From assembly GCA_030704615.1 (NCBI GenBank), contig CM060732.1:49848001-49912000 (forward strand): a DNA stretch of 64,000 nt. The letters run 5' to 3'. The stretch's first letter is position 1. Every line of letters begins with the position of its first letter. Below the pieces are notes generated by a model. The model ran no database searches and had not been told where the DNA came from. It saw only the letters and a program-made list of their open reading frames with translations. The translations under genes and the position numbers were made by a program. Source of the stretch: Takakia lepidozioides (taxonomy: Eukaryota; Plantae; Bryophyta). Below are positions 36,060 through 58,255 of this stretch, one piece after another.

Positions 36060-39000
36060 TATATGGGAGCTTTAGAGCGGAGACAGCAGGGAGTGTTCAA
36101 CAGCATGGCTGAACGAGATGTGGTGTCGCGGAGTGCGATGATTGCAGGATATGCACAGCGGGCGCGGGATGGAGGCTTTGCAGACATATGAGCACCTTCT
36201 TCAACACATTTCAGCCTGTTTTCCCTGTTATCAGGATTCAGAGTCATCCCTAAATTTTCAGGTTGAATTCTGCAAGTTAGCTCGATGTTGGTGCAAAAAG
36301 GTGAATGCATGTTGGAAGCGCAAGTCAGCATAGGAACTAGTGTAGGGTTAGGGTGTTTGCTGGAACAAATCTAGGCTATCATTGTCCGCTGCTACTATGC
36401 ATGATTTGTGCTGAGGTATGGATAGCCGAAGGAGCAGGGCTAGAGTGTGGGTCCAGATTCATCCAAGAGGGCCGGATTTCAAGCTCCAGATTACCTATGA
36501 ATCCCTGTGGAATGATAGCTACAAGAAACCTGCATGCGTAGATGGTCAACTGGAAGCCGCAACAGCAGTAGCGGCGGCACAATTGATAAAATTCAGGTAC
36601 TGCTACTCAAGGCACCTTCTTCAACACATTTCACCCTGTTTTTTCCTCTTATCAGAACCGGTCCTAAATGTCTCTTAAGGCCTTCAGCAGATGGGTTGAA
36701 TAGAGTCACGTGGTTTACTTTTTCAACTTGATTTTCAGATCTTAGGGCATGCGAGAGACAGTGTCAACAATCAATCATTCTTCCTGCAAAGTCTTGGTAT
36801 GCACAATCTGAGACTTGAGATCCTCCACAAAGGCCAGCAAGTTTTTAGTTGAGGATCCACCCTCTGCCATATCCTCATGAGCACAATATTTGAGCTTCCC
36901 TACCCTGGTTCGAATTGCCATGCCCTCCTCCCCTGTCATTAGCTCCCTAATGTGTGCATGATTTGTGCAGAGGCAGAGATAGCTGAAGGAGTAGGGATAG
37001 AGAGTAGGTCTAGATTCATCCAAAAGGGCCAGATTTCAAGTACAAGATTACTTATGATTTCCTGTAGATCAATAGCTACAAGAAACCTGCATGGGTAGAT
37101 GGTCAACTGTCATGCCGCAGCAGCAGCGGCACAACTGATAATATCAGGCACTGGTAATCAAGGCACCTTCTTCACATTCACCCTGTTTTTCCCTCTTATC
37201 AGAATCGGCCCTGAATTTCCATGTTGAATTCTGCAAGTTAGCTGGTTGAGTGAATATAGTTTGGAGTGACTTTGACATGATACTGCCACTGTGACAACAG
37301 GAAAGTATCCAAAAATACGTAACAGAGATGAGGAGAAGCTGTGGAATGAATACTTTTCTGACCCCAGTCAATGGTGGGACACTAGGCAAAAAGGTGACTG
37401 CTTGTTAGATTACATGAGAGTAGCAGACGCAATTCAATATAGGAACTAGTGTAATAAGCTGAGTTGGGTGTTTCCTAGAACAAATCTAGGCTGTCATTAT
37501 CAGCTGCAAGGCAAGGATGTATGCATCATTTGTGCAGAGGCATGGATAGCTGAAGGAGCGGGGATAGAGTGTGGGTCCAGATTCATCCAAGAGGGCTGGA
37601 CTTCAAGCTCCAGATTACCTTGATTTCAGGTGGATCAGTAGCTACAAGAAACCTGCATGTGTAGATGGTCAACTAAACAATATGTCTGTCTGTTGCTTAA
37701 GTGCATCAAGATGGATGGTCTGGAAGCTGGAAAGCAGGTGCACACTCACATTATCCAAAGAGGATTCACACCAAATGTTTAGCACCCTTGTCAACATGTA
37801 TGTTAAGTGCGGGAGCATCATGGATGCTCACCAAGTGTTCAACAGAATGCCTCAATGATCTTTGATCACGTGTAATATTATGTTGGCAGGATTTACCAAG
37901 CGTAGGTGTGGTAGGAATGCTTCGGAGACCTATGAGCAAATGTTGCGCGAAGGGGTGAAGCTCAACCACATCGCGTTTGTTTGTGTTTGCAATGCGTGTG
38001 CAAGCCTGGGAGCTCTGGAAAAGGGCAAAGAGGTCCATAGTGACATTGTCAAAGCTGGAATTGTACCAGATGTCATCCTGGAACAGAAGCGGCAGCAGCC
38101 CAATTGATAGAACAATTCGCTGCTAATGAAGGTACCTTCTTCAATACATTTCACCCTGTTTTGCCATGTTATCTAAGTCGTCTCTAAATTTCATGTAGAA
38201 TTCTGCAAGTTAGCTCGTTCATGATGTGAGCTGGCATGAGTTTTATAAAGATCCTTCACGATGGTGGGACAACCGCAATCACAAGGTGTGGCTTTTCTTA
38301 ATGTACGATGTGAAGAAGTTTGTCCATCCTGCAAAGGTGGGCTCTTGGCTCCTGTTAGTACCATGATTTGGTATTCTTCCTGATGTTTACAAGGTTCTTG
38401 GGAGAGTCAGCTTGGTCTTAGTAGGCCGTGTTTCAATCTCTGCCTGCTCAGCTGCACCGTGGTGGTTCTCACAGACCAATCCAACATTACCTGACTACAG
38501 AGACAAACATCACACACAAGAGGTCATTTTGGGTTGATGCTCGGTCAAATCCTCCATGGGTCAAGGACAATGTGGTGAGGGCACCTTCTTCTTTGACCTG
38601 TTGCAGCCTGTTTTGCCCCCTCATCAGACTTGGCCTGAGATGCATATTGAATTCTGTAAGTTAGCTCATTGGGTGGATCTGTGGTGGTTTGGAGTGACTT
38701 TGAACTAGTGTGATAAGTAGGGTTGGGGTGTTTGCTGGAACAATTCTAGGCTGTCATTGTCAGCTGTTAGCAGCAAGGCAAGGATGTATGCATGATTTGT
38801 GCAGAGGTATGGATAGCTGAAGGGGCAGGGATAGAGTGTGGGTCCAGATTCATCCAAGAGGGCTGGATTTCAAGCTCCAGATTACCTATGATTCCATGTG
38901 GATCAATAGCTACAAGAAACCTGCTGCATGGGTAGATGGTCAAGTAAAGGTAGCAGCTGCAGCGGCACAGTTGATAAAATCAGGCACCTCAACCATGACC

Positions 39001-40345
39001 ACAGCTTCTGAAAGAGGATCAAGAGAGGGAGTCCACAATGCCTCTTCTACTGGGCATGTGAAGATGCTTTGTGAGGCAGGCAGACTGACAGAGGCTCTAC
39101 AACTTTAAACCAACAAGGCATTTCAGCAGATTCAGATATGTTTGTCTGTCTCTTGCTTAAGTGCATGAAGATGAAAGGTCTGGAAGCTGGAAACAGGTGC
39201 ACACTCACATTATCCAAAGTGGATTAACGCCAAATGTTTTTCTACTCAACACCCTTGTCAACATGTATGTGAAGTGTGGGAGCATCATGGATGCTCACCA
39301 GTTTTTCCACAGAGTGCCTCAACGATCTTGATCACTTGGCAGGATTTACTAAGGATGGGTGTGGTAGGAGTGCTTTGGAAACCTATGAGCAACTGCTGCG
39401 CGAAGGGTGAAACCCAACCACATCACATTTGTTTGTGTTTGCCATGCGTGTGCAAGGCTGGGAGCTCTGGAAAAGGGGAAAGAGGTCCATGGTGACATAG
39501 TCAAAGTTGGATTTGTACGAGATGTCATTATGAACACTGCCCTGGTGGTCATGTATGCCAGATGTGGGTGCATTAAGGATGCGAAGGGAGTTTTCAACAC
39601 TATGGCTGAACGAGATGTGGTGTCATGGAATGTGGGGGGAATGTGATGCTTGCAGGGTATGCACAGCAGGGACATGGTATGGAGGCTTTGGAGACCTATG
39701 ATCAAATATTGATGGGGGAAGGGGTGAAGCCCAACCACATCACGTTGCAGCATACTGGTACTTCACAGCCATGGCGGCTCTCTCAACCCCTCTATTTTTT
39801 TTTCCTTTGGTTTTTTTGGCGCTGGGAGAGAGCAGCAGCTTTGCTGTCTCCTTCCCCTTGCTTATGCCGATCGTTAAAGGGGAAATTGTCATTCTGAACT
39901 CTGCCTTGGTGGACATGTATGCCAAATGTGGGTGCAGCAAGCCTGATGTGAAGGGAGAGTTTGACAATATGGCTGAACGAGTTGTGGTATTTTGGAGTGC
40001 CATGATTGCAAGGTATGTGCAGCATGGGTATGGGATTAAGGCTTTGGAAACATAAGAGCAAATGATGTGGGAAGGGATGAAGCCAGACCAGGCCGTCATG
40101 TTCATTTGTTTTTGTAATATGCATATGCTAGCCTAGCAGCCCTGGGAAGGGGCAAAGAGGTTTATGGTGACATTATCCAAGCTGGAATTGTACCAGATGT
40201 CATTCTGAACATTCCCCTGGTGTACATCTACGTCAAATGTGAGCCTGGCAGCCCTCAAAAGGGCACAAAGGTCCATGATGACATCGTCAAAGCTGGAGTT
40301 GTCACTCTAAACACTGCCTTGGTGGATATGTATGTCAAGGCAACC
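36060..40345 (+). pseudogene. Tandemly duplicated, decayed PDF-motif + PLS-class PPR gene array
   Basis: PPR fragments (TLVNMYVKCGSIMDAHQVF, DVVSWN, GVKPNHITFVCVCHACARLGALEKGKEVH) with stops and shifts. Repeated IHPRGPDFKLQITYESLW and WWDNRNHK blocks. Confidence 0.85.
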
Positions 40346-40984
40346 CTGGAAGTGGATGTCACTTTGGGTGACAAGGTAGCTGGCACCACCATTTTCTGGA
40401 ACTCATTCTCAAAATGATTGCTAATGTTCTCTTGACATGTCCACGATAGTGCTGGACCTAGCTGCACGGCAGATTATCCTTACTCAATGACTTCAGTTGG
40501 GCAGTGTTGGTCATTTGTAGAATGTGGCCAAAACTTGTTTAGCAAAACACTCTTGATATAAACCAGTTTTGAGCCATCCAAATGTTTTTGGTTCCGACCT
40601 GTATTTGTATTCTATGTTTTGTTGTATTTGTGATATATTTTCAATGCAGTGCAGCGAATCAAAAAAATTAAATACAATATCCACTAATTCACATACGTAC
40701 AGATATAAACTAAAAGTAAATGAAAAAAACCAAATAACAGTAATAAACAAAACACCAAATATTAAATTAAAAGCCTCCCAATTCATATATATATATATAT
40801 GTATTTTTATATTTTTATGTATATATGTATATACATCCCGTGAAACATATTTACTAAAATGTGTCCTCTTTTACTGCTTCACAGTAGAATATTACACTAT
40901 ACAAAGTCAAGCAAACTCACTATCACTGATTTACAGTCAAACCTTATACTAAACATCATGGAACGTAGTCAATATGTTCCACTG

Positions 40985-41155: not shown

Positions 41156-42180
41156 CTAGGTTTTACTGTCATATTTCACTGTCAGAACCTGGCATCTGGA
41201 TTCGACTGCTTGACTGAAACGACTTGACTTTTGTCACGCATGTTCGACTATGGAGGCTGGGAGTAAAAATGTCGCAAACGACTCAAAAATGAGTCAAATA
41301 CAGAGTCGAAAAGCCCAGCTTGTATTGTAGTGAAATCGTCGACGTCGATGTTCTCAAAAGACTTGAGAAGAAGACAAGATTCAGGAGGGTTCAGCAAACA
41401 CTTCAAAACCGTATCATCAATCAGCAGAGTGTTACTCTAATTGTAAAAACCTTCAGAACTCTGCCATACTTTAAGGAGTGGTTTCAAGAACACATGAGGT
41501 TGATCTTGTCCCGTTCGGTAATTTGGGTGCAGATTGCTTGGGCAAATGATACAATCCTCCTGCGACACGATGAACGCTAGCCGTGGAAGACCACGTAGGA
41601 GCAAATCCAGAATGGCATTTAAGTTTTTAAGCACCATGCAGCTCCAGATACCTAAAATGAAGTGCTTGTGTAACTCTTGCCAAACTTCCCGGTACATCTT
41701 CCGTCTAAAAATTTGCCGATACCCAACAATAGTAGGAATGTTGTAATCAGATTCCGAAAAACGTGGAGCAGGTCCTGGGCTCTGGCGCTTTGTTATTTTG
41801 CATAACACTCCATTAACGTCAAAAAAATATCAAACGGGGTCCCCTCATAGATGGAGATCCAGGCTGTCGGATCTATGAAGGAGTGATAAAGACACTTAAG
41901 TAAATCAAGAAAAGAAGAATCCCATGAACACATAAGGAACTCAATGACCTCAGAATCCCAATTCATTCTCAAAACTAGTCACTTTAATATCTCATGCTCC
42001 ACTTCCAGGGCCTCTAGATACTTTAGATGTGCATCCCATTCCTCCTTGTTCTTAGGCCATGGAAAATCCCAGCGATTAATGAATTTCACTCTAGCATCCT
42101 GAAAGTAGATATCCTTAGGTATTCCAAAAGGGTTCTGCTCATTGAAGGCCCAAGTGTCAATTTTTTAATGCCTCAACTTC

Positions 42181-42396
42181 TCATAGGTGGGGCTTCAGAT
42201 GACCCATCAAAAAATCATCCTTGTATGGATCTACAAGTGCTTCGTATTTAGGTAGGAAGATGTCCAGGCTCAGAGAATTGAGGAAAGACTTGTACATGTT
42301 CCCAACGACGTCGATAAGCAGGGTGTTAGACATGTAGGCTTTAGAGTCGGGGTCTACAAACAAGTCGTAAAGTCGTTTGAAGTAGATTGGGGCCAA
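42181..42396 (-). pseudogene. C-terminal half of a second FCP1-like HAD phosphatase (split by inversion)
   Basis: PIYFKRL...SNTLLIDV..NMYKSFLN....IF. The N-terminal half is at 46340-46671 on the + strand. Confidence 0.6.
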
Positions 42397-43750
42397 CGAG
42401 CCAAGAGGTTTAGGTGGGAGGGGACACACCTGCTCCGAATATGGGAGGATGGTCGAGTGAGGATTGTGCCTCACCCAACACAGCGGGCACGGTTAGTGCG
42501 GCATGCCCATGAGGAGTTGGGGCATTTTGGGGTGCGACGCACTCATAGTCTACTGCAGGGGCAGTATTGGTGGCGTGGTATGCACACAGAGGTGCAACAA
42601 TTTGTGGCTAGGTGCATGGTGTGTGATAGGGTGTGTGCTTCATTCAAACGCCCCTACTCCACAATTGCACCCTCTTCCGATCATGGGATTGGGCTACAGG
42701 TGGAGTCTTGACTTCGCAGGGCCATTGCCACTGACCATGCGCCACAACAAGTATGTGTTGGTGATGGTGGAGCACTTCTCCAAGTGGATTGAGTTGGTTC
42801 CATTGCCTGATAAGGCTAGTGAGGGAGCTGCGTATGCATTCTTGGATTGTGTGCTTAGCCGATTCGGTGCTCCAGCTGAGGTACTCACGGACCAAGGGAG
42901 AGAGTTCTTGGGGGAGTTTCAGGCTTTGTGTGACAAGGCCTTGATAGACCACCGCACCACTTCTCGGGATCATCCTGAGGCTGATGGCTTGGCAGATAGA
43001 GTTGTTCAGACAGTAAAGAGAGGTTTGCGCAAGTATGGCTTGCAGAAAGGACACCTAGGAGATTGGGACCTTCAGTTACCCTGGTTAGCCATGGGCTATA
43101 GGTTCAGCAAGCAAGCATCACTTGCCTCCTTTTCACCTTACTTTCTTCTCTTCGGCCGAGAGCCGGATTTGCCTACATCCATTCGCAGAGAAGCTGCTAC
43201 AGTTCTTAACCTTGACGATCCGGACGTGTGGGCACGTGCATGTGAGCAGCGTGCAGAGTTGTTCAAGAGAGTCATGCCCATGGCTTTCGAGAACCTTGCC
43301 ATTGCACAACACCGTGATACGTTGAGGTATGCTACCATACGTGGTGGGGGCTATCGTCCTGGGGTTCGGAGATTCAACCCTGGTGACTATGTCTATCTAC
43401 AGCAGACTACTTCTACGACCCTGGATGTGACTGCATGACGTGTTATTTTGAGGGTTCGAGAGGTCTTGCCCTCAGGCGTCTTGGTCTTGGAGGGTCGGGA
43501 TGGCATAACTTGGAAGGACCATGTGCGTAATTGTGCGCCATGTCACCTTCCGAATGTCGATGGCAGGATTGACCCAAACCTAGCAGTGGTATCTGCAGGT
43601 TTGAGGTGCATGTTGTGTGGGTCTGCTAAAGGAGCAGCCACCATGCTGGTGTGTGATCGATGCTCTAGAGGTTGGCATATGGGATGCTTGACTCCACCTC
43701 TTGAGATGGTTCCGGATGGGGATTGGTTATGTCCACATTGCATTGGATAG
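42397..43750 (+). mobile_element. Gypsy integrase (HHCC + DDE core) fused to a C-terminal PHD finger
   Basis: HEELGHFG...CMVC, WSLDF, VLTDQG, ADGLADR (third acidic residue reads D), SPYFLLFGR. One frameshift at ~42645 and an in-frame TGA at 43436. Then C4HC3 CMLC...CDRCSRGWHMGC...WLCPHC. Confidence 0.92.
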
Positions 43751-43998
43751 TGGGAGTGGATACAACCATGGAAGGCTAACAAGAAACGCAAGGCCCAGCT
43801 ACTAGGAGACCTTGAACACACGAGGTCCTGGCTCAAGTTACAGATTGCAAGACGGCGACTAATGATGGGGCTACTCTTGTACCCAGCCTCTTGGTCTATA
43901 GAGTTTGAGTGCAATAGGGGCAGTGATAGAGGACTTAGTACGGCTGTGGCTATCACATCTTGTAGCTATCTGGAGGTAGAGGGACCTACCCACCAGCT

Positions 43999-44009
43999 AG
44001 GGGGGCGAT
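43999..44009 (+). other. Polypurine tract
   Basis: AGGGGGGCGAT immediately 5' of TGTGG at 44010. Confidence 0.6.
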
Positions 44010-44538
44010 TGTGGCAGACTACTTTATTGTGCATATATGTGTGGTATGGTTTGGACAGCGATGTAGTTGTGTAGCGATACGTATGCGCACGACAGCTGTC
44101 AAGTTAAATAAGCACAGTGTGAAAACGACTAGAATAAAGCTAGTTATTTGTACTTAACACTTGGATTTAGGTCAAGTGTTAAGTCAGGTGTCAAGTTTAG
44201 TTTGACACCTGAACCGTCTTATCTTCACGAGAGCGGCAGTCGCGCAGCTCATCTCTCTCGAGTTGAGCCTGCGCGACCGAGCTCCTGCATCGTTTAGGAC
44301 TGAGTGTGCTCATGATGGGAGTGTAGGTTGTTGTGGGGTGGAGTCCCCACAGCTTGGGGTGCCCCTGGCTCGACTTCTGTTTTAAAGAGTGATAGCGATG
44401 GATTTCATATTTCTTGTGTTGGGAGTGTGTGTCCTTTTAGCTTTTCTTATCATTGTGACATACTACTTTATTGTGCATATATGTGTGGTGTGGTTTGGAC
44501 AGCGATGTAGTTGTGTAGCGATACGTATGCGCACGACA
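44010..44538 (+). repeat. 3' terminal repeat block: A (44010-44094) - GC - B (44097-44452) - T - A' (44454-44538)
   Basis: A and A' are 85-bp direct repeats with 3 mismatches. B is the reverse complement of 55701-56056, identical by eye over 356 bp. A-gc-B reads TG...CA. Confidence 0.92.
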
Positions 44539-44960
44539 TCTTCTTGACGCAGAGGTCCTCTTCCAATCTGGTTTCGTACATAAGGTTTGGTGAGGGGCGA
44601 GACAAGTATATTCTGCTTCAGGGGTTGTATCTTCCTGGAGAGTTCGACAATCCTTACATGAGCCGGCCAAAGTCATTTTCAAGGCCACTCATGTGCCTTG
44701 ATTACGTATTTCCTGCTACAGCTGCCCAGATTGAGAACCACGAGGAGCACCTGCAGGGAGTGCTGATGTTCAGCCCCATTTAAACCAGTGATTAAGGCTC
44801 CGGACACTGAGCTCACGAAACACGAGAAAGATTGTGCCGCTTATGAACACGAATTGCGGGCAGAGTCGAACGACTACATTGCGTCCTTGTTCTGTGGCGA
44901 AGGGATGACGGCTGTCAACGTTTTTGGAGGCGTAATGTTAACATCGGCTCTCTACGTAAG
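44539..44960 (+). pseudogene. C-terminal part of the host-transposon gene interrupted at 56057 (amino-methyltransferase motif-I-like end)
   Basis: Removing one TCTT copy fuses ...NAFVF (56057, minus) to FLTQRSSS... in frame. Downstream sequence reads ELRAESNDYIASLFCGEGMTAVNVFGG. Confidence 0.55.
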
Positions 44961-46339
44961 CAATTTCATTTCCATTTCCAATTCGATTTCCATTTCCGAA
45001 ACACATCTTTGGAACCTCGCGCGATCACGCGTTCATTCTATTTACTCAATGGTTGGCATCTTTTGTAGGCTATGAACGTCCGAGTCATCACAACCTGAAA
45101 AAAAAAATTTGCGCGATTAAGGTTGCCGCTAACTACACACTCATCCACACGGAGAATGAGGACGGAACCGAGGTTGGTGATGACACATTGGGAGGGCAGG
45201 GAGACCCACAGGCACAATGGCGAAGGAAATGACGACGACGATGACGATGAAGATGACGGACAAAGAGATTTGGAGACAGAGCAAAACCAGGAAGAAGGTG
45301 ACGGAAACGAAACGTTGGACAAAAATGAAGAACTTGAGGGAGGTGAGGAAGACAAGGGCGACTACCAACACGATGATGTCGTCAACAATTTCTTGCAAGA
45401 GGAGACAGAATAAATTGAGCAAGGCAGAATTCCACCAGCTGATCAAGCAGGGAGGGTAGTACTAGAAGAAAGCCACCATCCACAGGCCCAGACAAATATC
45501 GGTGAATGAGACAATCCCGAGACAACTGTGCTGTCTTCCTCCACTGAAGAAGTGGAGGGAGACAATGTAAAGGATAACGCTGATTCTAGAGACATCTTCG
45601 ATAAGGAGATTTCAGAAATAGACTCAGAGGTGGGATTCAGTCCTGTGGAGGGGGATATGCCATTACGGATATCACCATATCAAGGTTTAAGCCAACGAGT
45701 TAGAGACATCGTTGATGGTCAGGCATCTAGGGCATTGGTCGGCAATCAAAACTCTGTTGACGTGAGTATTGCAGATTATGAGCTGTCCTGACACTTGTAA
45801 AACCCAATTTATAGCAAACTTGATATAACACCAGAATCTTTTACCAATGGAACTAATAACCTATTGCTCTGTGATAGTCTCGTAAATCAATCGAAATATA
45901 TACGGAAGTCTAATCACCCGCATTTTCTGTAGATCCGTGAGTCCAATACGGAGGAAGTGACACATACCAGAACAAACGACACACAACAGCGTACAATGAA
46001 GAAACAATACGACTTGAGAGTGAGAATATTGTCGCCCAAGGTAGTAGCTTCAGAAACCGCGAGCGATCGTGCGAGGTTACTTATGAGACGGGTCGACAAA
46101 AACATACCGAACGGCGAAAGACCCATCGCCGGGGGAATTGGCGGCGAAACCTCATCCGGCTTGGAGCAAGTGCCGCCAAAGCTGGTACTTCATTCTCCGC
46201 CTTCTGTTTTCTTTTCTGCATTCCATTGCGAAAAACTTCCAATGAATTAATAATTATTTCATAATGGGCAAGATGATATGATCTATCCACCACACAACTA
46301 TTCCCAAATTATCAATCCCGCGGATTTCTTTGCTCTTCC

Positions 46340-46671
46340 AATGGGTCCAAATAGATGTCAGCCCGGATATTATGTCCTGGTTTTGGATGTCGGGTTTTAT
46401 GTGAGGTCTACCTCCAGAATGGGCCAAAAACCCCTCCCGCAACGCAGCCTTATATCTCCACTGAAAGATTTAAGTTAGCAATGCGACATGAGGTGTGAGA
46501 CTTCCTCAAATGGGTCGTTAAGAAGTTTTGGGTCATCTTATAGAACACTAGCAAATAAGAGACTGCCGTGGATTTCAAATCAGCCTTGTTCGGGATGAAC
46601 GCCCACAACGTCAAGCATTACAGTTCCGACCAATGTGTGGAACATAGACTTACTTTCAACACATATTGGCC
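46340..46671 (+). pseudogene. N-terminal half of the second FCP1-like phosphatase
   Basis: YVLVLDV.GFLC...MRHEV*DFLKWVVKKFWVIL*NTS, read across a frameshift and stops. Confidence 0.55.
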
Positions 46672-48388
46672 ATCCCTCTCCTTGGCAGTCACAGTGGCTG
46701 CCGTGTCTCCACTGCAGAGGTAGTCCAACACAACTGAATCCTCATGTATATCTTTGGCGCCACCCTGCTCATTGCTGGCCTCAGGGTCCTCAGACACTTG
46801 ATCTACAGTCATCCCTGTTGTAGGTCCAACCTGGCCTTCCGCTGCCAAGATACACAGAAATGCAGATGCATGCCATCCGGGCACCATCTCCTCGTCCGTC
46901 TCACCATGCCACCGAGCTCCAGTGTCATCCTGCTGGCTCGTGCATGGATTGCGACTCAACCCATCTGCATTGCAATTGACCAAACCCGGTCGATGCACCA
47001 CCTGAAAGTCATACTCTTGAAGGATGAGTGCCCACCGTGCAAGCTTCCCCGTAAGTTTGTCTGACTCCATCAACCACTTGAGTGGTTGGTGATCCATGAC
47101 AAGGGTGAAGAGATTGCCGTATAGATAGCACCTGAAGTGTGCCACGGCCCACACTGCAGCTAAGCATTCTCCCTCATATGAGCTATACTTAGACTCTGCA
47201 GCATTGTTCGAGCGGCTAGCATAAGCCACTACGAACTCTCTTCCCTCATCATCCACCTGTGTGAGCACCGCTCCAAGCCCCAGCATGCTCCAATCTGTAT
47301 GCAGCTGAAAAGGACGCCCCCTGATAGGTCGTCTCAACATGGGCGCCGAGGTCAACCTCGCCTTGAGCTCTTGAAAAGCTTGTTCTTGCTCATCTTCCCA
47401 CTGCCACTCCTTGTCCACCTTGGTCAGCTTGGTTAGAGCCTTTGCAATGGCACTAAATCCCTTAACAAACCGTCTGTAATAGTTTGCTAACCCCATGAAA
47501 GCTCGAACTCGGCTCACATCCGTGGGGCGTGGAACCTGTGCAATGGACTCTACCTTAGTCTGCTGTATCCCCAATCCTCTAGGATATATCATGTGACCTA
47601 GATACTCAATCTGGTTGTGGAAAAACTTGCATTTTCCCGGATGTAACTTCAATCCGTGCGCCCTCAAGCGCTCAAATACCCCCTGAAGGTGTCTCTCATG
47701 CTCCTCCACCGTAGCACTAAAGATGATGATGTCATCTATGTAGCACCGAGCAAACTCCACCCCTGCTAGAATCTTGTCCATGACTCTTTGAAACTCAGCG
47801 GGAGCGTTTTTAAGCCCAAATGGTAAGAACCGCCACTGGTATAGGCAACTTATCCGCCTCCTTGATCGGCAACTGGTGATATCCGGATCGTAAATCCAAC
47901 GTGCTAAAGACCTTGGAATGCCCAATGGCATCAAAGATCTCCTCTGGTGTCGGCATGGCATACCTATCGGACTTGGTCTGACGATTTACAGGCCGGTAAT
48001 CACCGCACATACGTCTCTCCGTCCAATTGCCATAGACATCCTTCTTGGCCTGCATCACTGTGGCTGAAACATACTCTCCACCAGAGAGCTCCACCAAACC
48101 TGTCTCCCAGAGATCTTGAGTCCTCATCTGAATCAAAGACCTCTCCATGTCACTGTATCTATAGGGTCTCCGAAAGATTGGCGTGTCAGTGGCCAACTCA
48201 ATACGGATCTCTTGACCCTTCAGTGCTCCCAAGTCCTTCAAATTGAAGGCAAAGCAATTCCTGTAAGCCCTCAGGAACCGCCGTATACGTCGTCTCTCTC
48301 CTCCGGTGACAATGGGTCCAATGTGAGGCTCCCAATTGTCCTCCGTAACTGCAACCTTAAGTCCAGTGGGCTTAGAGGTAGAGGACAC
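46666..48388 (-). mobile_element. Gypsy reverse transcriptase and RNase H
   Basis: RMCGDYRPVN, FSTLDLRSGYHQL, LPFGLKNAPAEFQ, YIDD (~47731-47743), YLGH, LHTDWS..GLGAVL, YASR, DHQPL, ADGLSR. One deletion/frameshift at ~47845. Confidence 0.95.
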
Positions 48389-48587
48389 GTCCCGTGGTTG
48401 CTATGCTGCAACCTCTTGAGCAGTACTCCCTTCTTGCTCAGTCAATGACAAGGCCTCATCCTGCCCCATCATCTCATCATTGAGAACCTCCTCATCCCGA
48501 GAAGAATCCCCAACCTCATCCATCACAGCTGCCTTGGCTGCCAACTCCCTCTGAACCTCGAGCACCTCCCACGTGTGTCATGGATGT

Positions 48588-49709
48588 CTACACCCCGTGG
48601 TCCTCACTCGCTGCCTGTACCATCTCGGCAGGCAGAGAGACCATGAAGGGGAGTGCACTCCGCACTCTACGTTGCTCAGCCATAGCCAAGCTGATAATCC
48701 AGGTCAAGCAATTGAGATCCATTGCTTGCCCCAACACCTGACGTCGTGATGCCTCAGAAAAAGAAGGCACCGCCGTGGTCCCAGTGGAAAACCCCATAGC
48801 CCGTTCTCGCTCGTTGGCATTAGGCTCCACTAACTGCTGCAATTGAGCATCCCACAGAAGGCCAGGTCCACCATCCCGAAAAGCATGGAATCCTGGGAAG
48901 CTGAGCAGTGTAGGTAATGCTGCTCGTGGTTGACCCACCCTGTTGACCACTGCCAAAGGCAAACGGTCATCGTGTCTCACACGTTTAGACTGCCTCCCCG
49001 TGTCCAAAATGCCATCCACGGTGAGGTGTGCTGGCCGCTGCACCCCATCAAATGCACGCTTGAGTAGTGCGGGTGGCATCAAATTAATCCACCAAAGCCG
49101 TGGACGATGAGCCCGTGACCCCACTGCAGCTGCATCCAGCAACACTGCTAACCCAAGCCACGATCGGACTTGATGCACACTGGCCATCACCCTGGCCCGA
49201 GAATCACCCATCAGTGGCACATTCTCCAAGATGTATGTTGGAGATACAGCTTGATGAAGCTGCAAGTAGCGCAAAATCCGCACCATCTCCCAAAACAGAC
49301 CCGTCCTCGAGTCTCGCAATCCATTGCCATGCCCGGCTGATGAATGCCCTTGGCAGGGCCAACCTGCCACTACCAGATCAATGGAGCCAACCTGCTCCAA
49401 ATCCTGCGCCCCCAACAAAGAAATGTCTGCTGGCAAGGCTTGTTGGTATCCACGAACTGCAAACACTGGCAACAAGTCAGGGTATTGCTGTACCAACTGA
49501 GCAACATGGCACAGTGAGACGCGTCGTGCAGTCTCATCCCTCTCCACATACAGGTAACGTCGAACTCGTACACCTGCCTGCAACACTGCAGCCAATCCAG
49601 TGCTGATCCCGCCAAACAAGTCCAGAAGGCATATGCCTTCATCCGGGCACTGCCACACAAGAGGTGTGGTGTCCAATGGCGACAACTGGGGTGGTCCTGG
49701 TGCAATCAC
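48588..49709 (-). CDS. DNMT3-like C5 cytosine DNA methyltransferase domain inside the retrotransposon polyprotein
   Basis: Uninterrupted 373-codon frame with motif I DLFGGISTG, II YVERD, IV GWPCQ (catalytic Cys), VI ENV, VIII SRAHRPRLWW, IX ERERAMGF and X RRQVLGQAM. In frame with gag-PR, separated by one TGA. Confidence 0.92.
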   Translation of the reverse strand: MIAPGPPQLSPLDTTPLVWQCPDEGICLLDLFGGISTGLAAVLQAGVRVRRYLYVERDETARRVSLCHVAQLVQQYPDLLPVFAVRGYQQALPADISLLGAQDLEQVGSIDLVVAGWPCQGHSSAGHGNGLRDSRTGLFWEMVRILRYLQLHQAVSPTYILENVPLMGDSRARVMASVHQVRSWLGLAVLLDAAAVGSRAHRPRLWWINLMPPALLKRAFDGVQRPAHLTVDGILDTGRQSKRVRHDDRLPLAVVNRVGQPRAALPTLLSFPGFHAFRDGGPGLLWDAQLQQLVEPNANERERAMGFSTGTTAVPSFSEASRRQVLGQAMDLNCLTWIISLAMAEQRRVRSALPFMVSLPAEMVQAASEDHGV

Positions 49710-49724
49710 CGCACTCTCCTCCTC

Positions 49725-52136
49725 TCATGACGGTACGAAAGTAATGGCCAACTGATGTCGTGTCATGCCCCGAGCCTGCTCTGATCCTCCCAGAGATGTC
49801 TGTATCTGGAAAGGACAAGGCTCCATATCCGCCTCCATGAGGCCCAAACCTGCAATAGCAGCTCTGCCCAACATCAGTGGCTGAGCTCCCGAGTCCAACA
49901 AGACCCGCAGTGGCCGGTACTTCTTGCCTGCCGGTCCACTCAAAGTGAAAATGTCTCCCTGGTTGTCTAACAAGACAACTCCATGTATCACCATGGCGCG
50001 CTCAAAGGCTGGCCTAGCTGGCAGCTCCGTCAACCTGGCAGCTGCAGCTTGCCATGGCGCAGCCATGGCAGTCTTGACCCTCAAATCCGAGGATCCCTCT
50101 GCCACTATACCTTCCACTAACTCCGCAGAAGATGAAGTGACCTCCTCACTCTCACAGAGTGTTGCTGCTAGTCTTAACACTGCAGCTGGTCTTACCCCCG
50201 ACGTCGCAATCATGGTTGCTGAGAACAGTGGGGCTTGACACACAGAGGTGGCTGCCCCCAACAACACACCGGCTGCACTAGCCTTGGCAGCAGGTGTCAG
50301 TGCTGCACGTGTAGCTCTCCCCAATGGCATAGTAACCTCCGCCTCGGTAACAGTCGGGCGAGAACTAGGTGCCATGGATGGCGTCGACACTATCTCCGCC
50401 AATGTGAATGACTGAGGAAGCCTCGCCTGACGGCTTGCCTCCCCAAGTTGTGGATCCAACTCCACCTCTGCACCTCGTGGCTCAGGAACTCGTGCTGCTC
50501 CTCGAGTCACGGCTGCAGCAGACTCCACCTGCTCTAGTGGTAGTGCTACTCCGCACATAAATCCCATGCCTCCCATATCTCCTCCCTCAGGAGCAGGAGG
50601 TGGACCATCCCGCCTGGGAGCCGGTACCGCCTGAGCTGTAGCCATGGCAGCGAGCCTCTGCTCTAGCTGCTGAAGCCGGTTGGCCATGCCTTGGTCAACA
50701 CCCTGACCTCCGCGTCCTTGGCCATGTTGAGCTTGCCCTTGGCCTGCACCTCGTGCCCGACCACCTCGTCCTCTCTGGGCTGGTCCACCTCGCCCCCGGC
50801 CACCATTGTTCCCTTGGAACTGGCCTGGGTGCAACTCAGGATGCAAGTCATAACACTGGGCATCTCCATGCCCATACTTGCCACAATGCCCACACTGCAA
50901 CTGTGCAGGCTGTACTTGTGTCGGCCTTTTGCCACTCTCTGGGCAATCTCTTTTGACATGGGGTCCTCCACATGTCCAACATATCACCCATGGTTGCTGT
51001 TGGCCTGCAAAAGATGCCACGGGCCTCTGCCCCTGAGGTCCCCTGTAAGCTCCATGGAACTTGGGCTGGGCAACCTTGCCCCCCTGACCACGCTGTTGGG
51101 CAGTACCTTGTGCCTGTGGGCTGGCAGCTGCGCCTTGTGCAAGCATGTCCTTGCCAAATCCAATGGTAACAACTCGCTCCTCCACCATGTTGAGCTCAAT
51201 CCGCTCAACCAGCAGAAACACATCTGCTAATGTGGGTTGGGCTGCTTGTAACAGGGTTGCATCTCGCACCCTTCTCTTGAGCTCCTTGTCCAGAATTCCA
51301 TACCAAAACTGGATTGCCTGAGCTTCAGTAACCCCTTGGGTCACACTTATCAAGCGCCTCATACGAGTGTACGCCTCTCGCAGGCTCTCACTGGGTTTGC
51401 GCTGGAAGTCTTGCAAACTTTGCAGCTTCTCTGTCCGTACACCTTGGTAGTTCCTCCGCAACTCCTGGAAGAACTCCACCACCGGGTTGAATCTAGGCAC
51501 ATGTGTTGTAGTCGTGGCAGGAGGAGTAGTAGCACCTTTTGAACTGGTACCACCTGCAGAAGTACCGGCACTACTTGCTCCACTACTAGTGCTGGCAGTG
51601 GGAGATATTGGTACTGATGCAGCTACTGGTCGCGTCGTACCTCGAGTAATGGAGACGTAGTTAGGTGACCAATACATCCTCCACTCCTCAATCTCTACTT
51701 CATGTCCTCGCCTGAACTCGTGGTAATCGTCCATAGGCGGGCCTTCCAAATGCTGGAACAGTCCCTTCCACGCCATGAATGGGGTGAATAGCTGTGGATT
51801 GCGCATCTGCTGCAAATCACACCAGCTGTCGAACTCCTAGATAAAGTCATCCAACTCGATTGTGCCCACAGCTCCAGAGTACCTACGAGGCCCCTTGGTA
51901 GCTCCATACATCTCCTCCATATCGTCCCACAACAATGGCGAATGAAACTGCACACCTGTTGATGAAGCCTCCGAGTCTGTGTTTGACTCTGCACTAGTTG
52001 AGGGTGGAGGTGAAGGTGGTCTGAAACGAACACCTCGTCTGGTGAACCCACTCTCACTGCTACTGCCTATAGCCGTACTCCCCTCAAAACCCTTGGGTAA
52101 CTCCGTGATGACACTCACAATGTGCACCTCCCCCAC
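49725..52136 (-). mobile_element. Gypsy gag (two CCHC knuckles) + aspartic protease
   Basis: Gag QRKPSESLREAY; CWTCGGPHVKRDC and CGHCGKYGHGDAQC; LLDSGA. In-frame TAG at 51837-51839. The protease C-terminal half appears deleted. Confidence 0.9.
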
Positions 52137-52655: not shown

Positions 52656-53405
52656 CTATGCTATCAACTGCCAGACTTCTCTCAAAGTGCCTCGCTCTGC
52701 ATGATGGTAAGGTGTAGGAGGTATATCTATGTCCAGAAACCTGCCACTAACCTTGTCCCAAGCTACAGTAGCTCGCTCTAACCAACCCTCCTCCTCTTTT
52801 TGCCAGGTAGAGACAAAGCAACACTCTGCTATCTCCTGCTTACTGAACACTAAAGAAAACAAAGGTAGGGTCTGATAGTCTCTCAACTCGAAAGCTTTGA
52901 GACGGTTGCGGGTGTCCTCATTGTGAATGACTGCATCTCCTTCAAACAGAACAAACTTGTCCTCGCTAATGAACCCCCGCTCGTGGTTGCCTTGTGCAGA
53001 GCGTGTACGGCTGCAACGCTGTATGATTGCATAAACTTGTTCATCTCCTGCTCCTCTGCTCCAGTACACCACGGCCTTGTGGCTGAACACCTTGGTCCCT
53101 GGGGCTGTCTTTGGCTGTGTTCCAAGCCTAGCTTTCACCCACTTTGGTATTTCATTTACAGCTGCAGAACTGCTGGCTCCAACAGAGTTCTGACTGTCCA
53201 AAGCAATATTGAGGCCCTCAACGCCAACTACAGCATTTTGTTGTCCACTGCTAATGCCTGACTCCCAGTATGCAATCAACTCGTCCAACTGTTCTCCACT
53301 CAAATCAGTCTGAGTTCCTTGGGAAACATAAATCTTGTCCCCTTGGGTGCACAGGCTAAGAGAAGAGACCTGCCCTTCAATTACGTCCTCATTTCCCCCA
53401 GCCAT
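52656..53405 (-). CDS. Extra 249-aa ORF upstream of gag, function unknown
   Basis: ATG-initiated open frame on the element strand between the 5' repeat and gag; no recognisable motif. Confidence 0.45.
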   Translation of the reverse strand: MAGGNEDVIEGQVSSLSLCTQGDKIYVSQGTQTDLSGEQLDELIAYWESGISSGQQNAVVGVEGLNIALDSQNSVGASSSAAVNEIPKWVKARLGTQPKTAPGTKVFSHKAVVYWSRGAGDEQVYAIIQRCSRTRSAQGNHERGFISEDKFVLFEGDAVIHNEDTRNRLKAFELRDYQTLPLFSLVFSKQEIAECCFVSTWQKEEEGWLERATVAWDKVSGRFLDIDIPPTPYHHAERGTLREVWQLIA

Positions 53406-53889
53406 ACAAGGAATACATCCCCAGATTTATCTCTCATGTAGACCAGAACAGGTTCTAGAAACAAGATTGTGGATCTTTCATGGCACACTCACACTCTAAA
53501 AATTCCATAGATTTCTAGCAGAGTCCCAAAAACAGAAACCAGGTCTAGATAGGTAGATTTCCCCTTTCTGCAGCTATCCCCTCAAAAACTGAGTCAAACG
53601 GAGCTCATTTGACAAAGATATGACCAACCAGGCTTTTTAAACATTTAAATTAGATAAAAAATGCCCCCTTTTTTTTTTTAACACCAAAACGTTTTTGCCA
53701 TTACAACCTGTTCCCAGGTTATCTACGGGTTCCCGAGGCCGTTCCCCTCCAGGCTTCTCCGGGCACCAAGAGCTCATTAACTCCAAAACTCGACCTCAGT
53801 TGGGTGGGGTATCACACCCTGGAGGCGATTTGCTTTTCTCTGCGCGTGGGCCTGCCTCCTCGAGCTTTCAGGATGGCAAGGCAGTAGCC

Positions 53890-54000
53890 ATGTTTATGGC
53901 ACGCAGGAAGATTCAGAAGGAGAAGGGGCTCGAGCCTGATGAGTTCGAAGAGGCTGTAGCCCAGGCCTTATTCGACCTAGAGACTACAAACCAAGAATTG
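53890..54000 (+). pseudogene. RPS7: Captured fragment of 40S ribosomal protein S7 (eS7) N-terminus
   Basis: [37 protein letters not shown] matches the plant eS7 N-terminus; similarity ends abruptly. Confidence 0.85.
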
Positions 54001-54229
54001 GGGCGATTTCAAGAGCAGATGCACTGCGCAGCACCTTCATGGCTTATGGACAGGCGGCCTGCTGTAATGTGGCCGTCTTTGCATGGAATGCAAGGCCAAG
54101 ACCAGCTTGAAGTTCCATCAACTTGGTCTAATTCGCATCTCTCGCCAGCAATTATTGTTGGCTTAGAATGGTTTCCGCCTTCCTGTTACTGCTCGTGTTT
54201 CTGCCCTGCTGTTGTTGTGCATCGATAGC

Positions 54230-54595
54230 TTCGGCATCTCTCGGGAATCCATAGCGCATGCGTTGCTTGTGAAGCCTTTGGTTCTGGTTAGTCCCGGCAA
54301 TTGCAGCTCAATTCAGCACCAGCTCCGACAAACCGCCTTCTTGCCTCTCCCTCTGAGATCTGCAAGGACGAAATGTGTCGCTTCCAAACCATCAACAAGC
54401 TTGATTTCTGAAGGATTCTGGACTCCTTCATCCAGTGACAGTCACCAAGTCTGGTCCATGAGGAGTGATCTGGAGTTACCCACCTCAACATATGCTTATG
54501 AGGGGCCAATTGCTCAGGGAGGGCAGGGCCCATCACCCATGTTGGCTGAGCGATTCCAAAGCGTGATCACTCAGCTTTTTCAACAACGAATCATT
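54230..54595 (+). pseudogene. CLPP5: Captured fragment of plastid ClpP5 (transit peptide to start of protease domain)
   Basis: VWSMRSDLELPTS...QGGQGPSPMLAERFQSVITQLFQQRII resembles ClpP5 WSIRDDL..PSS...GQGPPPMVQERFQSIISQLFQYRII. No intron in the fragment. Confidence 0.8.
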
Positions 54596-55537
54596 CCACC
54601 TTGGCTGGCCGATACTGCCGTTCCAGCTGGAGTCGGCATTTTGTGTCTTCACAAAACCAAACAAAACCAAACTGCAGGAATTTGCGATTGCCTCAGTAAA
54701 GTGGAACTCAATTTGCAGCCGCTGGTGCAATGGGACCTTGCCAAGCAGCCCCTTCTTGATGTCAATCTGCAGCTCGCGCAGAGGAAGCGCAGCAAGAAAA
54801 ACTCCTTCACAAATTGACGGCAGGCACCTCTTCCAACATGCACCACATCAGCAGCAGCAAGGTCCAAGCCATTGGGTTTTTCATCAGAGGCGACAAGTGC
54901 AGTTACTGGGGAAATCTGTTCACCCTCAGCCTGCAGGTCCCCCTTTCTATATCAATTGCTCATACAACCCTTCTTAGAACCCTGTGTAGGAGCTTTCCGG
55001 ATGTTTTTCCCTGCAGCCATGACGGACACTGTGAACGGGAGCTTGGCCTTCAACGCTACTGCCTGTGTGCGCTTCGAACATACGATTGTGATCTGCACAC
55101 CAAGCCAAGGTATCTGCCACCGTACTCCCCCGCTGCACGGATGGCATGCAGCTCAATCTTTCAACCCGTTTTCTTCTGGTGGAATTCCGGCTCAAGCAGG
55201 GAGCTATTTCTGGAGCTCGTGCTTACCACCCTCCTACAACTGGCAACGAGAGAAACCCTACCAGCTGCTATACGACAGTGGTTTCAGGACCTTCGTCCAA
55301 GTAGCTATGGATCCTTTACCCTGCACAGCCTTTCGACAAGATCATTGCGATCGAGGTCTGTCCTCAGAACCTCGCACTCGAACTAGATCGCAGCTTGCTT
55401 CCGCAGGTAGCTTTCAAGCGTGGAATCCCGTCTTCCCCTTTCAATCATAGGTTATGGTGAACACATTCTTCTGCTGCCCCCCGAATCAACTTCCTCCAAA
55501 ATACATCGCTCCTGTGCAACAACAACAAAATGGAAAA

Positions 55538-55624
55538 CGCTTCTTGGACGAGCTTGGTATGGCTTATGACAAGTTGGAGAACCACGTTGTCATCAAGCAT
55601 GCCGCTCTCTTCACCTCGACCATC
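55538..55624 (+). pseudogene. THI1: Captured fragment of thiamine thiazole synthase
   Basis: [29 protein letters not shown]; [12 protein letters not shown] is the THI1/THI4 signature. Confidence 0.85.
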
Positions 55625-55700
55625 GACATAGTGCTAACATAAAAGAACTCTATCTAGCTTAGCACTACAAGAAAACTAGATACAGCTGATCTATCTCGAG

Positions 55701-56056
55701 TGATAAGAAAAGCTAAAAGGACACACACTCCCAACACAAGAAATATGAAATCCATCGCTATCACTCTTTAAAACAGAAGTCGAGCCAGGGGCACCCCAAG
55801 CTGTGGGGACTCCACCCCACAACAACCTACACTCCCATCATGAGCACACTCAGTCCTAAACGATGCAGGAGCTCGGTCGCGCAGGCTCAACTCGAGAGAG
55901 ATGAGCTGCGCGACTGCCGCTCTCGTGAAGATAAGACGGTTCAGGTGTCAAACTAAACTTGACACCTGACTTAACACTTGACCTAAATCCAAGTGTTAAG
56001 TACAAATAACTAGCTTTATTCTAGTCGTTTTCACACTGTGCTTATTTAACTTGACA
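55701..56056 (-). repeat. 5' terminal repeat (B only) of the DNMT-Gypsy element
   Basis: Starts TGTCAAG at 56056 and ends TATCA at 55701; preceded by TCTT, the same 4 bp found at 44539-44542. Confidence 0.92.
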
Positions 56057-58255
56057 AAGAAAACAAATGCATTGGGGCTCAGCTGTTGTTCGAAGAACGC
56101 ATCGAAAATATTCTTGTAATTTCTTTGCATAAAAACATTTGAGTCATCGTCACAGACTGTGTTGACGAACACCATTGTGATGTTATCGAAATCCCTCTTT
56201 CTCACAATTTTCAACTGTGTTTTGGCATCCGTGAACCTCCGCTTCCCTCCTATGCACTGGCAATGTGACTTGAAGGTATCCTTGAGGTTGCCCATTTCCT
56301 TCTCCATGTTTTCAACCATTTTCTTACATGAAAGCACGTATTTGATGAAAGCGTCACTCACTTTTTCGGTCTTCATGTTCACTTTGCTTTTCATGTATTT
56401 GGCCCCCAGTTTCGATCGGAATGTCTCGAACTCCGACTTGTTGAACTTGTACATTTTTTTCACTTCGAGCCATTGTGCTTTTGTGTACGGCTCTGGATGC
56501 GGCTTGCTTCTGGCATCAAATCCCAATACCACCATGACATCATCGATTATAAACCCTCTATCCTTTATTCGATCGATGTAATCGGATAGACAGAGAATCT
56601 TGGGGTCTTTTCCCTTGTAAGGACCACGAACATAGATCTTCAAGTCCAAAATCTTTTGCGCAACCTTCTTCATTTGAAGGGTGTTCAATCCTTGGAGTTT
56701 GCAGACTGCAGATTTTTTGAGCTGCAATTGTACACCCTTGTGCTTCTTACCGTTAATGTCCAGGAGGGTTCCCTTCTCCCACTCTCTGAAAACCTCCTGC
56801 CACTTCTCCCAAACATCGTCATTGCAAAGGACCAAGGTCATGGCCTCCTTAAACTCTAAGCATCTCCAATATAAGTTGTGAGGCTTGCAAAAATTCTTGG
56901 TCAACAGGAACAGCATGTCAGGCCAACACACAACAGGGACACACAGTTCTAGTGAATGTACAACAAAACATTAAACAATAAAGGAAGTCTAAATAATTAC
57001 CTTCCACTGAACGGTTTCAGATTTGGAAACGTTATCGTTGAATTTCTTGGGCTTCCCCCTCAACTCATAGTACATTCTGGCGTGAGCAACTTTCTCCGGG
57101 AATGTTGTTTCGAATTTTTGGGCTTTATTTGGGTTGTTCAGGAGCTTAGAAATCTTCAGCAATCGATTATTGCTATCTGACTAGAGGATAATTGATGGTC
57201 GTTCGGCGTAGTAGTCCCTCTGCTCCCGGTCAGTAATCTTCTCCACAAGTTCTTGATTTGGAAAATGTTACATCGGCATGGAATTGAACTAGAAAAGAGC
57301 ACGCGCGATTGCGCGAGAATAATAATGAGGCAACGCAAAGAAATATTCGAAAGATGATTATCATAGAAGTAGAGAAGAATATAGAAGCACGCGCGATGCG
57401 CGAGGTAAACGTTGATATACTATACCTTTGCAGCCATAATTGTGTGTTAGCCTCCAATTACGAAGAATTTTGAATTGTTAATATCCTTCTGATGCCTTGG
57501 TTTCATCGCAGACACCTGGGTTGGCTCCTGTTCGTTCCTCGGCGCCAGATACACGGGATGTTTCGTATCTAGAACCCGCAACTGGTACAGACGGGCTTTT
57601 ACTTCATCTTTGTGATTAATATTCAGCGGACGATACACCATGCTTCTTGGAGCAAGTTCCATCATTGAGATGTCAATTGAGATTATGTGGTTGAACCCAA
57701 AAGATGTTTACCTTTACTTTTTACCCCCTTCGTTGCCGCATCGTCTCGTTGTTTTCTGTTGATGTTTCCCTGCGCATGGAGTACATCTTGGAAAATGCTC
57801 CAAGCTTGTACGAATCCCTGAGCAGTCAGGGCTGCACCACCTTCAGGGAAAGTGAATCCCATCTTTACAGCTGGTTTCATCATTGCCTTGCGAACGCGGC
57901 GAGATTCTAGAGAAAAACCAAACGTCTTTTTCGCTCTACCATCTTCCAAAATGAAAACCACCATCATTGGATTCTCCACGTCCGACTCCATCTCAACATC
58001 TTTAACGTTGCCATAATTAATCTCCTTCACCTCCGCTCCAATCTTGAAGGAAAACTTCAATTGGTGGTCAGGAGGTACACCCACAGGATTTATTCCCCAC
58101 TCGGAGATCGTCTGGTTAAGAGTATACAAAGCTACGTGGTCTATGCTGAAGTTTGGCGATTTTGTTGAGATGAACTCCCCACATATCTCCTTGCATACGC
58201 CAACCAGGCAATCCGCCAGTATGTTTGACTGACCACTGAACATGAAACACAACAT
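56057..58255 (-). pseudogene. Multi-exon transposon cargo gene with a ParB-like N-terminal region, interrupted by the Gypsy insertion
   Basis: YRPLNINHKDEVKARL...FFVIGG*HT (GGQH with a CAA>TAA change), a GT-AG-bounded exon at ~57001-57177 and a long exon at 56931-56057. Confidence 0.5.

Follow-up and report, generated by a model that had tools for sequence, protein, structure and literature searches.

The window, the whole 64,000-nucleotide stretch of Takakia lepidozioides DNA analysed here, contains a copy of a Ty3/Gypsy retrotransposon carrying a cytosine methyltransferase domain of the DNMT3 type (Table 1). The element spans positions 56056 down to ~46672, with its 3′ part flipped at 42394–44538. 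Its ends are arranged as X … PPT-B-X-B, where X and B are repeats and PPT is the polypurine tract, and TCTT flanks both sides. The insertion target is itself a repeated open reading frame (ORF), which is split into 55996–56970 (minus strand) and 44543–44780 (plus strand). Two frames (41437–42492 and 46360–46669) are phosphatase-like (NIF/FCP1) by eye, with no Pfam hit, and a DUF7869 domain is located at 62469–63008; together with the split ORF, these surroundings are likely a large DNA transposon. Elsewhere in the window, a class 3 lipase gene (17085–20198, plus strand) forms a single uninterrupted frame of 1038 codons, with 64% identity to Sphagnum, 57% to Ceratodon and 49–52% to liverworts and a lycophyte, values that point to a moss as the likely host. 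Positions 36400–40400 (plus strand) hold decayed tandem repeats, PPR-type by eye, mixed with other repeated pieces.

Table 1. Features of the retrotransposon copy, in window coordinates.
Feature	Position	Strand	Basis or remark
4-bp target duplication, 5′ side (TCTT)	56057..56060	-	matches 44539-44542
Repeat X1, element 5′ end (TGTCA start, CA end)	55701..56056	-	356 nt, 100% match to 44097-44452
Predicted self-primer within X1 (likely RNA 5′ end)	55891..55909	-	17/19 bases pair with the site right after X1
Predicted primer-binding site, complementary to the element's own X, start not TGG	55682..55700	-	complementarity
THI1 (thiazole synthase) host-gene fragment, antisense to element	55535..55624	+	PDB 1rp0, E 1.9e-7
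Plastid ClpP host-gene fragment, antisense to element	54434..54595	+	PDB 7eko, E 1.1e-7
Ribosomal protein S7 host-gene fragment, antisense	53890..54003	+	Pfam Ribosomal_S7e, E 8e-5, below cut-off
gag (stop at 51837) plus the first protease half (DSG), deletion at end	49728..51920	-	51% to P0003 residues 1-689
TGA at junction of ~150-codon deletion, private to the window copy or its subfamily	49725..49727	-	comparison with P0003; contigs diverge
DNMT3-type C5 cytosine methyltransferase domain	48654..49640	-	Pfam, motifs, PDB match, AlphaFold model
Natural ORF1 end (TAG CAA CCA), fits stop-CARYYA readthrough consensus; RT in same frame	48395..48403	-	sequence
Reverse transcriptase (deleted and frameshifted near 47850-47930), RNase H	46672..48394	-	Pfam RVT_1, RT_RNaseH
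4.3-kb inversion flipping integrase, PHD, 3′ repeats and flank	42394..46671		contig of run X9; run X1 joint 42394/46671 on opposite strands
DDE integrase (H2C2 zinc finger, rve) with a frameshift and a changed third catalytic residue	42394..43435	+	Pfam
PHD finger, integrase C-terminus	43604..43747	+	Pfam PHD, E 1.6e-11
Polypurine tract (PPT)	43999..44007	+	same place in relatives
Repeat B1	44010..44094	+	repeat comparison
Palindrome GACA-GC-TGTC at the B/X junction, formed by two back-to-back integrase-type ends	44091..44100		kept in relatives
Repeat X2	44097..44452	+	identical to X1
Repeat B2, element 3′ end (CGACA), 3 differences from B1	44454..44538	+	44538 is the end of other run X1 copies too
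4-bp target duplication, 3′ side	44539..44542	+	interrupted frame from 56970 open 79 more codons, in matching phase

On the minus strand, positions 48588–49724 form a stop-to-stop frame of 378 codons that matches Pfam DNA_methylase (E 5.7e-13). Motifs I, II, III, IV (PCQ), VI (ENV), VIII (RxR), IX and X are all present, in linear order. Among the 57 of 171 homologues that span the whole DNMT domain, the catalytic cysteine is conserved in 53, the glutamate in all 57, and the two arginines in 53 and 56. An earlier sequence-only reading of this DNA had claimed these C5-methyltransferase motifs apart from motif III, including PCQ, ENV and RxR, and a location between protease (PR) and reverse transcriptase (RT); both claims are borne out. 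The best PDB sequence match is DNMT3A (E 7.6e-10), followed by DRM (7e-5) and HhaI (4e-4), and an AlphaFold model of the domain (pLDDT 83.8) has DNMT3A as its best fold match (TM 0.68). A host DRM or host DNMT3 gene is ruled out by the linear motifs, the lack of introns and the embedding of the domain between protease and RT.

At residue 251, in the likely DNA-recognition loop, the window domain differs from 128 of 136 relatives, and so the domain itself may be impaired. The arginine that reads CpG in DNMT3A has no clear counterpart in this loop, as judged by eye. This feature would suit a domain kept for a role other than DNA methylation (DNA binding, RNA or particle structure), as would the report that the related enzyme of the alga Klebsormidium nitens, KnitGypsy-Dnmt3, gave no methylation signal in yeast, which its authors call inconclusive (PMC5890265). 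We consider such a role improbable: the catalytic cysteine, the glutamate and both arginines are near-invariant over the 57 homologues, and human DNMT3B failed in the same yeast assay (PMC5890265).

The window copy is dead: it is a decayed and partly inverted copy of an abundant Ty3/Gypsy family, of which intact relatives exist. The sequence-only reading had described an unbroken frame continuing gag and protease. In the window, the phase is indeed the same, but the TGA at 49725–49727 and a loss of ~150 codons intervene. The unbroken frame is instead found in relatives, the search for which that reading had proposed: the Marchantia protein P0003 is an uninterrupted gag-PR-DNMT of 1278 aa, and locus L019 is a whole element, with ORF1 (Gag-PR-DNMT, 1369 codons) and ORF2 (RT, RNase H (RH), integrase (INT) and PHD, 1047 codons) in the same phase. 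Residues 690–859 of P0003 face just 15 window codons, from which we deduce that ~150 codons are gone, including the second half of the protease. The tail of ORF1 is cut by a frameshift near 48610. Integrase is damaged by a frameshift and by a stop at 43436, and its third catalytic glutamate is replaced by aspartate.

An unrelated frame is split at the two inversion points, 42394 and 46671. A 5009-nt contig from another organism (run X9) reads from RNase H straight into integrase, and in run X1, 36 contigs depart from the window at 46672 and 22 at 49742. Near 49725–49727, 22 contigs of run X1 and one of run X9 continue differently from the window. The inversion and the ~150-codon deletion are therefore not general to the family. 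No contig among those listed bridges the inversion junctions at 42394 and 46671, and the 4.3-kb inversion may exist in the plant or only in the assembly. Repeats X1 and X2 are identical over 356 nt despite the decayed coding region, and B1 and B2 differ at 3 of 85 sites. The identity of X1 and X2 may reflect recent mobilization in trans, gene conversion or an assembly effect.

Summed contig depth, which is not a copy number, is ~1e6 over the element core and ~2e3 over the flanks in run X1, and 700–1600 and ~5, respectively, in run X5. In both runs it is about equal over gag, DNMT, RT, RH and INT. The 5′ leader (53673–55700) carries at least three pieces of host mRNA, from RPS7, ClpP and THI1, strung antisense along it. 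Their depth is at flank level, hundreds of times under that of the core, and thus they are carried by few copies. The sequence-only reading had pointed out antisense host fragments, permuted repeats and a PHD finger, all of which are present in the window, and had taken them as a self-contained epigenetic system; for the host fragments, flank-level depth and confinement to few copies contradict this. Contigs near-identical to the leader (53673–55700) reach a depth of ~700 in run X1, a hint of a small amplified subfamily. Upstream of gag, a 256-codon ORF (52656–53426, minus strand) has no Pfam match and about one-third of the core depth; it is possibly an accessory gene of the subfamily. An identity was sought for this ORF and for the ORF at 54818–55447, and none was found.

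Relatives with the gag-PR-DNMT/RT-RH-INT-PHD layout are found in Marchantia, Calypogeia, Sphagnum, Closterium and Klebsormidium. Named homologues with 60–71% identity come from Marchantia polymorpha, Calypogeia fissa and Sphagnum; Riccia supplies a further, partial one. In chlorophytes, a related DNMT is located between RNase H and integrase. We refer to the two layouts as type A (PR-DNMT-RT) and type B (RT-RH-DNMT-INT); among 143 further cluster representatives, 13 are type A, 87 are type B and 43 lack context. Four of 19 element proteins bear species names: Klebsormidium (GAQ93235.1) and Closterium (GJP34393.1), both with PR-DNMT, and Scenedesmus and Cymbomonas, both with DNMT before integrase. 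PHD and DNMT co-occur in both layouts. Among 51 matches and the best 120 of 177 listed, there is no named fern, lycophyte, hornwort or seed-plant match, which is not evidence of absence in those groups.

A tree of the DNMT domain shows a single split between 48 type A and 89 type B sequences (support 0.81). Within it, a clade supported at 1.0 unites the window with the named proteins of liverworts and mosses; Closterium and Klebsormidium fall outside this clade, with GAQ93235.1 on the type A side. Of the phylogeny proposed by the sequence-only reading, the tree covers the comparison with charophyte element DNMTs, and it is built without host DNMT3 sequences. In an RT-RH tree of 70 sequences, from which the broken RT of the window was left out, the 12 type A members group together with no other sequence among them (1.0). 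By identity, the window DNMT lies nearer to that of Scenedesmus (43%) than to that of Klebsormidium (37%). The trees are compatible with long vertical descent during which the domain moved once, or with two captures, and the KnitGypsy-Dnmt3 type is, on these alignments, best filed as an old green-lineage clade rather than as a capture limited to Klebsormidium.

Median dN/dS values for DNMT fall with rising dS (0.55, 0.43 and 0.17), compared with 0.40, 0.28 and 0.31 for RT. These estimates come from metagenome relatives; the value of 0.17 is the median of 20 diverged pairs, and pairs are not independent. Between diverged pairs DNMT behaves like the core enzymes, whereas in young pairs it is less constrained than RT. 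Stops are found in 32 of 44 distinct DNMT copies. Neutral evolution, which the sequence-only reading had named as a possible refutation, is contradicted between diverged relatives; in young pairs the value is 0.55. Another outcome it had named, copies lacking the domain, is at odds with the even depth and with the same slot in the named liverwort and moss proteins. Together, even depth, constant position and a dN/dS of 0.17 support DNMT as a standing, conserved part of the family. The idea that DNMT merely rides along neutrally, or was inserted into the window copy by chance, hardly deserves belief: the window copy is broken at many places, as that idea would have it, but dozens of relatives in several phyla carry the domain at one and the same position, under purifying selection and at even depth, which largely refutes it.

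Origins outside eukaryotes were also considered and rejected. Among 185,579 prokaryotic genomes there is one match, which is a whole element on a small contig (L098), and in viral scans all matches were weak and partial, at E 8e-16 or worse; both scans were pattern-seeded and miss distant relatives. L098, on a contig of a cyanobacterial genome record, is a whole type A element in a circular assembly, with two long ORFs and one junction palindrome. The contig is likely eukaryotic contamination.

Where the DNMT domain lies bears on how much enzyme is made. A stop followed by CARYYA, in phase with RT, is found in the window and in L001, L019, L021, L043, L066 and L098, and stop-CARYYA is a plant readthrough consensus (PMC5397192). 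Around 15 loci of another family carry TAG/TAA-CAACCC at the ORF1 stop, and the CARYYA context is absent in one type A family (the L056 group). Because DNMT lies ahead of a leaky-type stop, it would be made at the level of Gag, and many copies are predicted to be packed into each particle. The leaky-type stop gives indirect support to the packaging supposed by the sequence-only reading. Ribosomes would mostly halt after DNMT, with low-rate readthrough yielding RT-RH-INT-PHD.

The repeats have an unusual arrangement. All 16 distinct 5′ ends start with TGTCA after unique flank, and B never precedes them; the distinct 3′ ends number 15, of which 7 run on as B-X and 8 stop at B. These counts leave out L015 (contig ends), L078 (truncated B), L098 (circular contig), the 3′ layout of L024/L026 (rearranged), L045/L052 (unclear ends) and duplicates of one insertion. 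The 4-bp duplications are perfect in L035, L024, L077 and the window and have one mismatch in L028; both L077 and L028 are X…B copies. The B/X joint reads GACA-GC-TGTC in type A elements and at a single type B locus; this palindrome is conserved in L002, L035, L043, L056, L074 and L098, with one mismatch in L019. The X2/B2 joints differ among copies, and one retains bases of the PPT, as would be left by end-joining. One type B element, L063/L068, has a single ORF of 3329 codons and ordinary TG…CA long terminal repeats (LTRs) with a repeat-to-repeat junction.

In the window, the site directly after X1 pairs with a mid-X stretch at 17 of 19 positions; in a random-interior control, none of 3000 12-mers matches X as well as the primer site does. 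Four families show self-pairing, each through a sequence of its own (window 12/14, L035 14/14, L062 14/14 and L098 13/13), compared with 8–11/14 in cross-family controls. In family 1, it reaches 13–14/14 in just 4 of 11 copies. A TATA-like box is located ~30 nt upstream of the predicted RNA start in two families. We infer from this complementarity a self-priming site in place of a tRNA site: the RNA would start inside X, and its first bases would prime reverse transcription without a tRNA. Self-pairing of this kind resembles the self-priming of Tf1.

Reverse transcription would then yield a repeat composed of B and X, the true repeat of the element. The integrase would use the internal palindrome of the left repeat as its two ends, producing X…B-X-B or X…B flanked by a 4-bp duplication. 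For foamy virus, cutting of a palindromic LTR junction by integrase has been reported (PMC1180852). A model in which a two-repeat circle opens symmetrically was rejected, as it predicts X-B-X 5′ ends, seen in 0 of 16. Another route to the same layout, to which we give an appreciable though minor chance, is copying of the DIRS/PAT kind. Here B2 would be part of the transcript, both ends would be templated by the B1-X2 joint, and no internal site would be cut. This route shares the A1-B1-A2-B2 layout of PAT and Ngaro elements, explains the one-sided layout and agrees with the divergence of the window repeats (B1/B2 3/85, X1/X2 0/356; p about 0.007). However, B begins right at the PPT and the primer site directly follows X, the X2/B2 joints are heterogeneous, the two repeats of L035 have diverged equally (X 92%, B 94%), and X…B copies bearing target duplications exist (L077 and L028).

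Base composition may bear on the enzyme's target. The CG observed/expected ratio is 0.34–0.64 in 7 of the 8 type B loci measured and 0.98 in the eighth, L060. L060 (1–6803) is an intact type B element with an ORF of 1997 codons, and it ends in CACGACA like the window family. It contains 2 CAG/CTG in 6803 nt, against ~135 expected in the coding span; none is in the first 6750 nt, and both codons are unused. A search for further loci of this kind found none. The composition of L060 suggests a CWG-specific enzyme or a host effect. CG-poor type B loci and a CAG/CTG-poor L060 are what one would predict if each enzyme marks its own DNA in every cycle, although they may also reflect the hosts. In the window, the ratio is 0.50 for the element and 0.44 for the host lipase gene, and a shortage of CAG, such as CHG methylation by the host would produce, is seen in most type A loci too. 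The CG shortage of the window element was therefore rejected as a sign of self-methylation: it equals the host level, and the window gives no such signal.

We hold, with slightly more confidence than doubt, that the window contains a decayed copy of a moss Ty3/Gypsy family in whose relatives the DNMT3 in the Gag frame is packed into the particle and methylates the element's own new DNA, most likely at CG. The new DNA would enter the genome already marked like host heterochromatin, which may lessen detection or runaway expression.

Two other roles in DNA methylation were weighed. The enzyme might act in the nucleus during or after integration, on the neighbourhood of the insertion or on resident copies, guided by the PHD-integrase. 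PHD and DNMT occur together in both layouts, the type B DNMT is directly N-terminal to integrase, and moss host DNMT3 works on H3K9me2 heterochromatin (PMC6453930). We nevertheless find this unlikely, because in type A the DNMT is in ORF1, ahead of the stop and apart from integrase, and the domains listed for Chlamydomonas Gypsy-7a include PHD and no DNMT (PMC9940879). Quite unlikely, too, is protection resembling restriction-modification: with the CG and CAGCTG of the palindrome methylated by DNMT, genomic copies would be safe from integrase, and only the left copy made last would be cut. The attraction of this idea is that families 38–67% identical in DNMT share the junction CACGACAGCTGTCA, which contains a CG and a symmetric CWG, that use of the left palindrome only (0 of 16) would be explained, and that foamy virus integrase cuts such a junction (PMC1180852); yet L063/L068 keeps its DNMT despite ordinary LTRs, and the spacers are altered in L019 and L079.

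Packaging of the enzyme and methylation of new element DNA, the reading we prefer, can be extended into a wider scheme, which we offer as speculation and think unlikely as a whole. An ancient green-plant clade would run a restriction-modification-like cycle: integrase cuts an internal palindrome instead of acting on the cDNA ends, and the many-copy, Gag-fused DNMT3 methylates new DNA so that one site is cut and genomic copies are spared. Specificity would have shifted between lineages (CG mostly, CWG in L060), leaving a corresponding gap in the sequence of each element, and in mosses and liverworts such enzymes would contribute de novo methylation that has so far been overlooked.

These findings have practical consequences. 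How a retrotransposon uses its own DNMT3, a question posed in 2018, has had no tractable host. Marchantia polymorpha is a genetic model with methylation mutants, and whole gag-PR-DNMT frames are annotated in it as hypothetical proteins, so that cDNA methylation, readthrough and priming are testable there. What was a curiosity of one alga becomes a clade likely dating to early green plants. Because its repeats are split, ordinary LTR finders would probably miss the family. If the proposed cycle is correct, integration at an internal site would be a new route for an LTR element.

Several known systems share parts of this design. SymbioDIRS-Dnmt3 of dinoflagellates also has split repeats, and its DNMT3 methylates CG in yeast; it is described with a tyrosine recombinase and an unrelated RT, whereas the window family has a DDE integrase and 4-bp duplications (PMC5890265). 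PAT, TOC and Ngaro elements share the A1-B1-A2-B2 repeats, but the window family has an rve integrase, a PPT and a target duplication, and a cytosine rather than an adenine methyltransferase (PMC4157794). Pfam finds no tyrosine recombinase in the 26 window frames scanned, and does find rve and H2C2 integrase domains. A DIRS, PAT or Ngaro identity was thus rejected, on the missing recombinase, the rve integrase and the 4-bp duplications.

The Tf1/Sushi and plant Tcn1 chromoviruses resemble the window family as Ty3/Gypsy elements of non-seed plants (PMC6317226) with predicted self-priming; the window family differs in having PHD instead of a chromodomain, a DNMT and split repeats. Neither the scanned window frames nor the domains precomputed for whole relatives include a chromodomain hit, and a chromovirus is rejected by this domain content. 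Gypsy-7a_cRei and REM1 of Chlamydomonas are Gypsy elements with PHD and 'LTR subparts', and no DNMT appears among the domains listed (PMC9940879). EpiLTRs of Cymbomonas and Euglena are LTR elements with a cytosine methyltransferase, which is DNMT4-related and accompanied by DAM and a chromodomain; their authors set them apart from streptophyte Gypsy-DNMT3 elements (bioRxiv 10.64898/2026.05.21.726589).

The closest system is KnitGypsy-Dnmt3 of Klebsormidium nitens, with Gypsy domains, DIRS-like repeats, a split-repeat layout already drawn in the original description and Ka/Ks <0.2 (de Mendoza et al. 2018, PMC5890265). Its authors called it an acquisition in the K. nitens lineage, placed DNMT3 in Pol and hypothesized methylation of cDNA by the element's DNMT3 (PMC5890265); two later papers say 'streptophytes' when citing that work. 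We take GAQ93235.1 (PR-DNMT, 37% identity to the window) to be the published element. Shared with it are the Ty3/Gypsy order gag-PR-RT-RH-INT (restored in relatives, the window being locally inverted), an unrearranged, intronless DNMT3 with the key residues (in a single ORF in P0003 and L019), DIRS-like split repeats (A1…B1-A2-B2) and purifying selection on DNMT (median 0.17 over 20 diverged pairs, higher in young ones). Every structural feature compared is thus shared, and the window family belongs with KnitGypsy-Dnmt3. As the sequence-only reading had supposed, no description of an element DNMT3 from a land plant was found in the literature searched (PMC12344493, PMC10952607, PMC9516144, PMC6453930, PMC6317226, PMC2836005 and bioRxiv 363937, in the portions available); theses, Repbase or subscription papers may hold one.

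The core idea, a retrotransposon with its own DNMT3 and a hypothesis of cDNA methylation, is therefore already published, and the design was previously described from one alga. Unlike KnitGypsy-Dnmt3 as described, the window family is found in a land plant at very high abundance, spans streptophytes and has chlorophyte relatives; its DNMT ends ORF1 before a leaky-type stop rather than being placed in Pol; and its PHD, self-priming and palindrome are absent from the available parts of the published description (PMC5890265). What is new here is the range across land plants and chlorophytes, the position before a leaky stop and the signature of L060.
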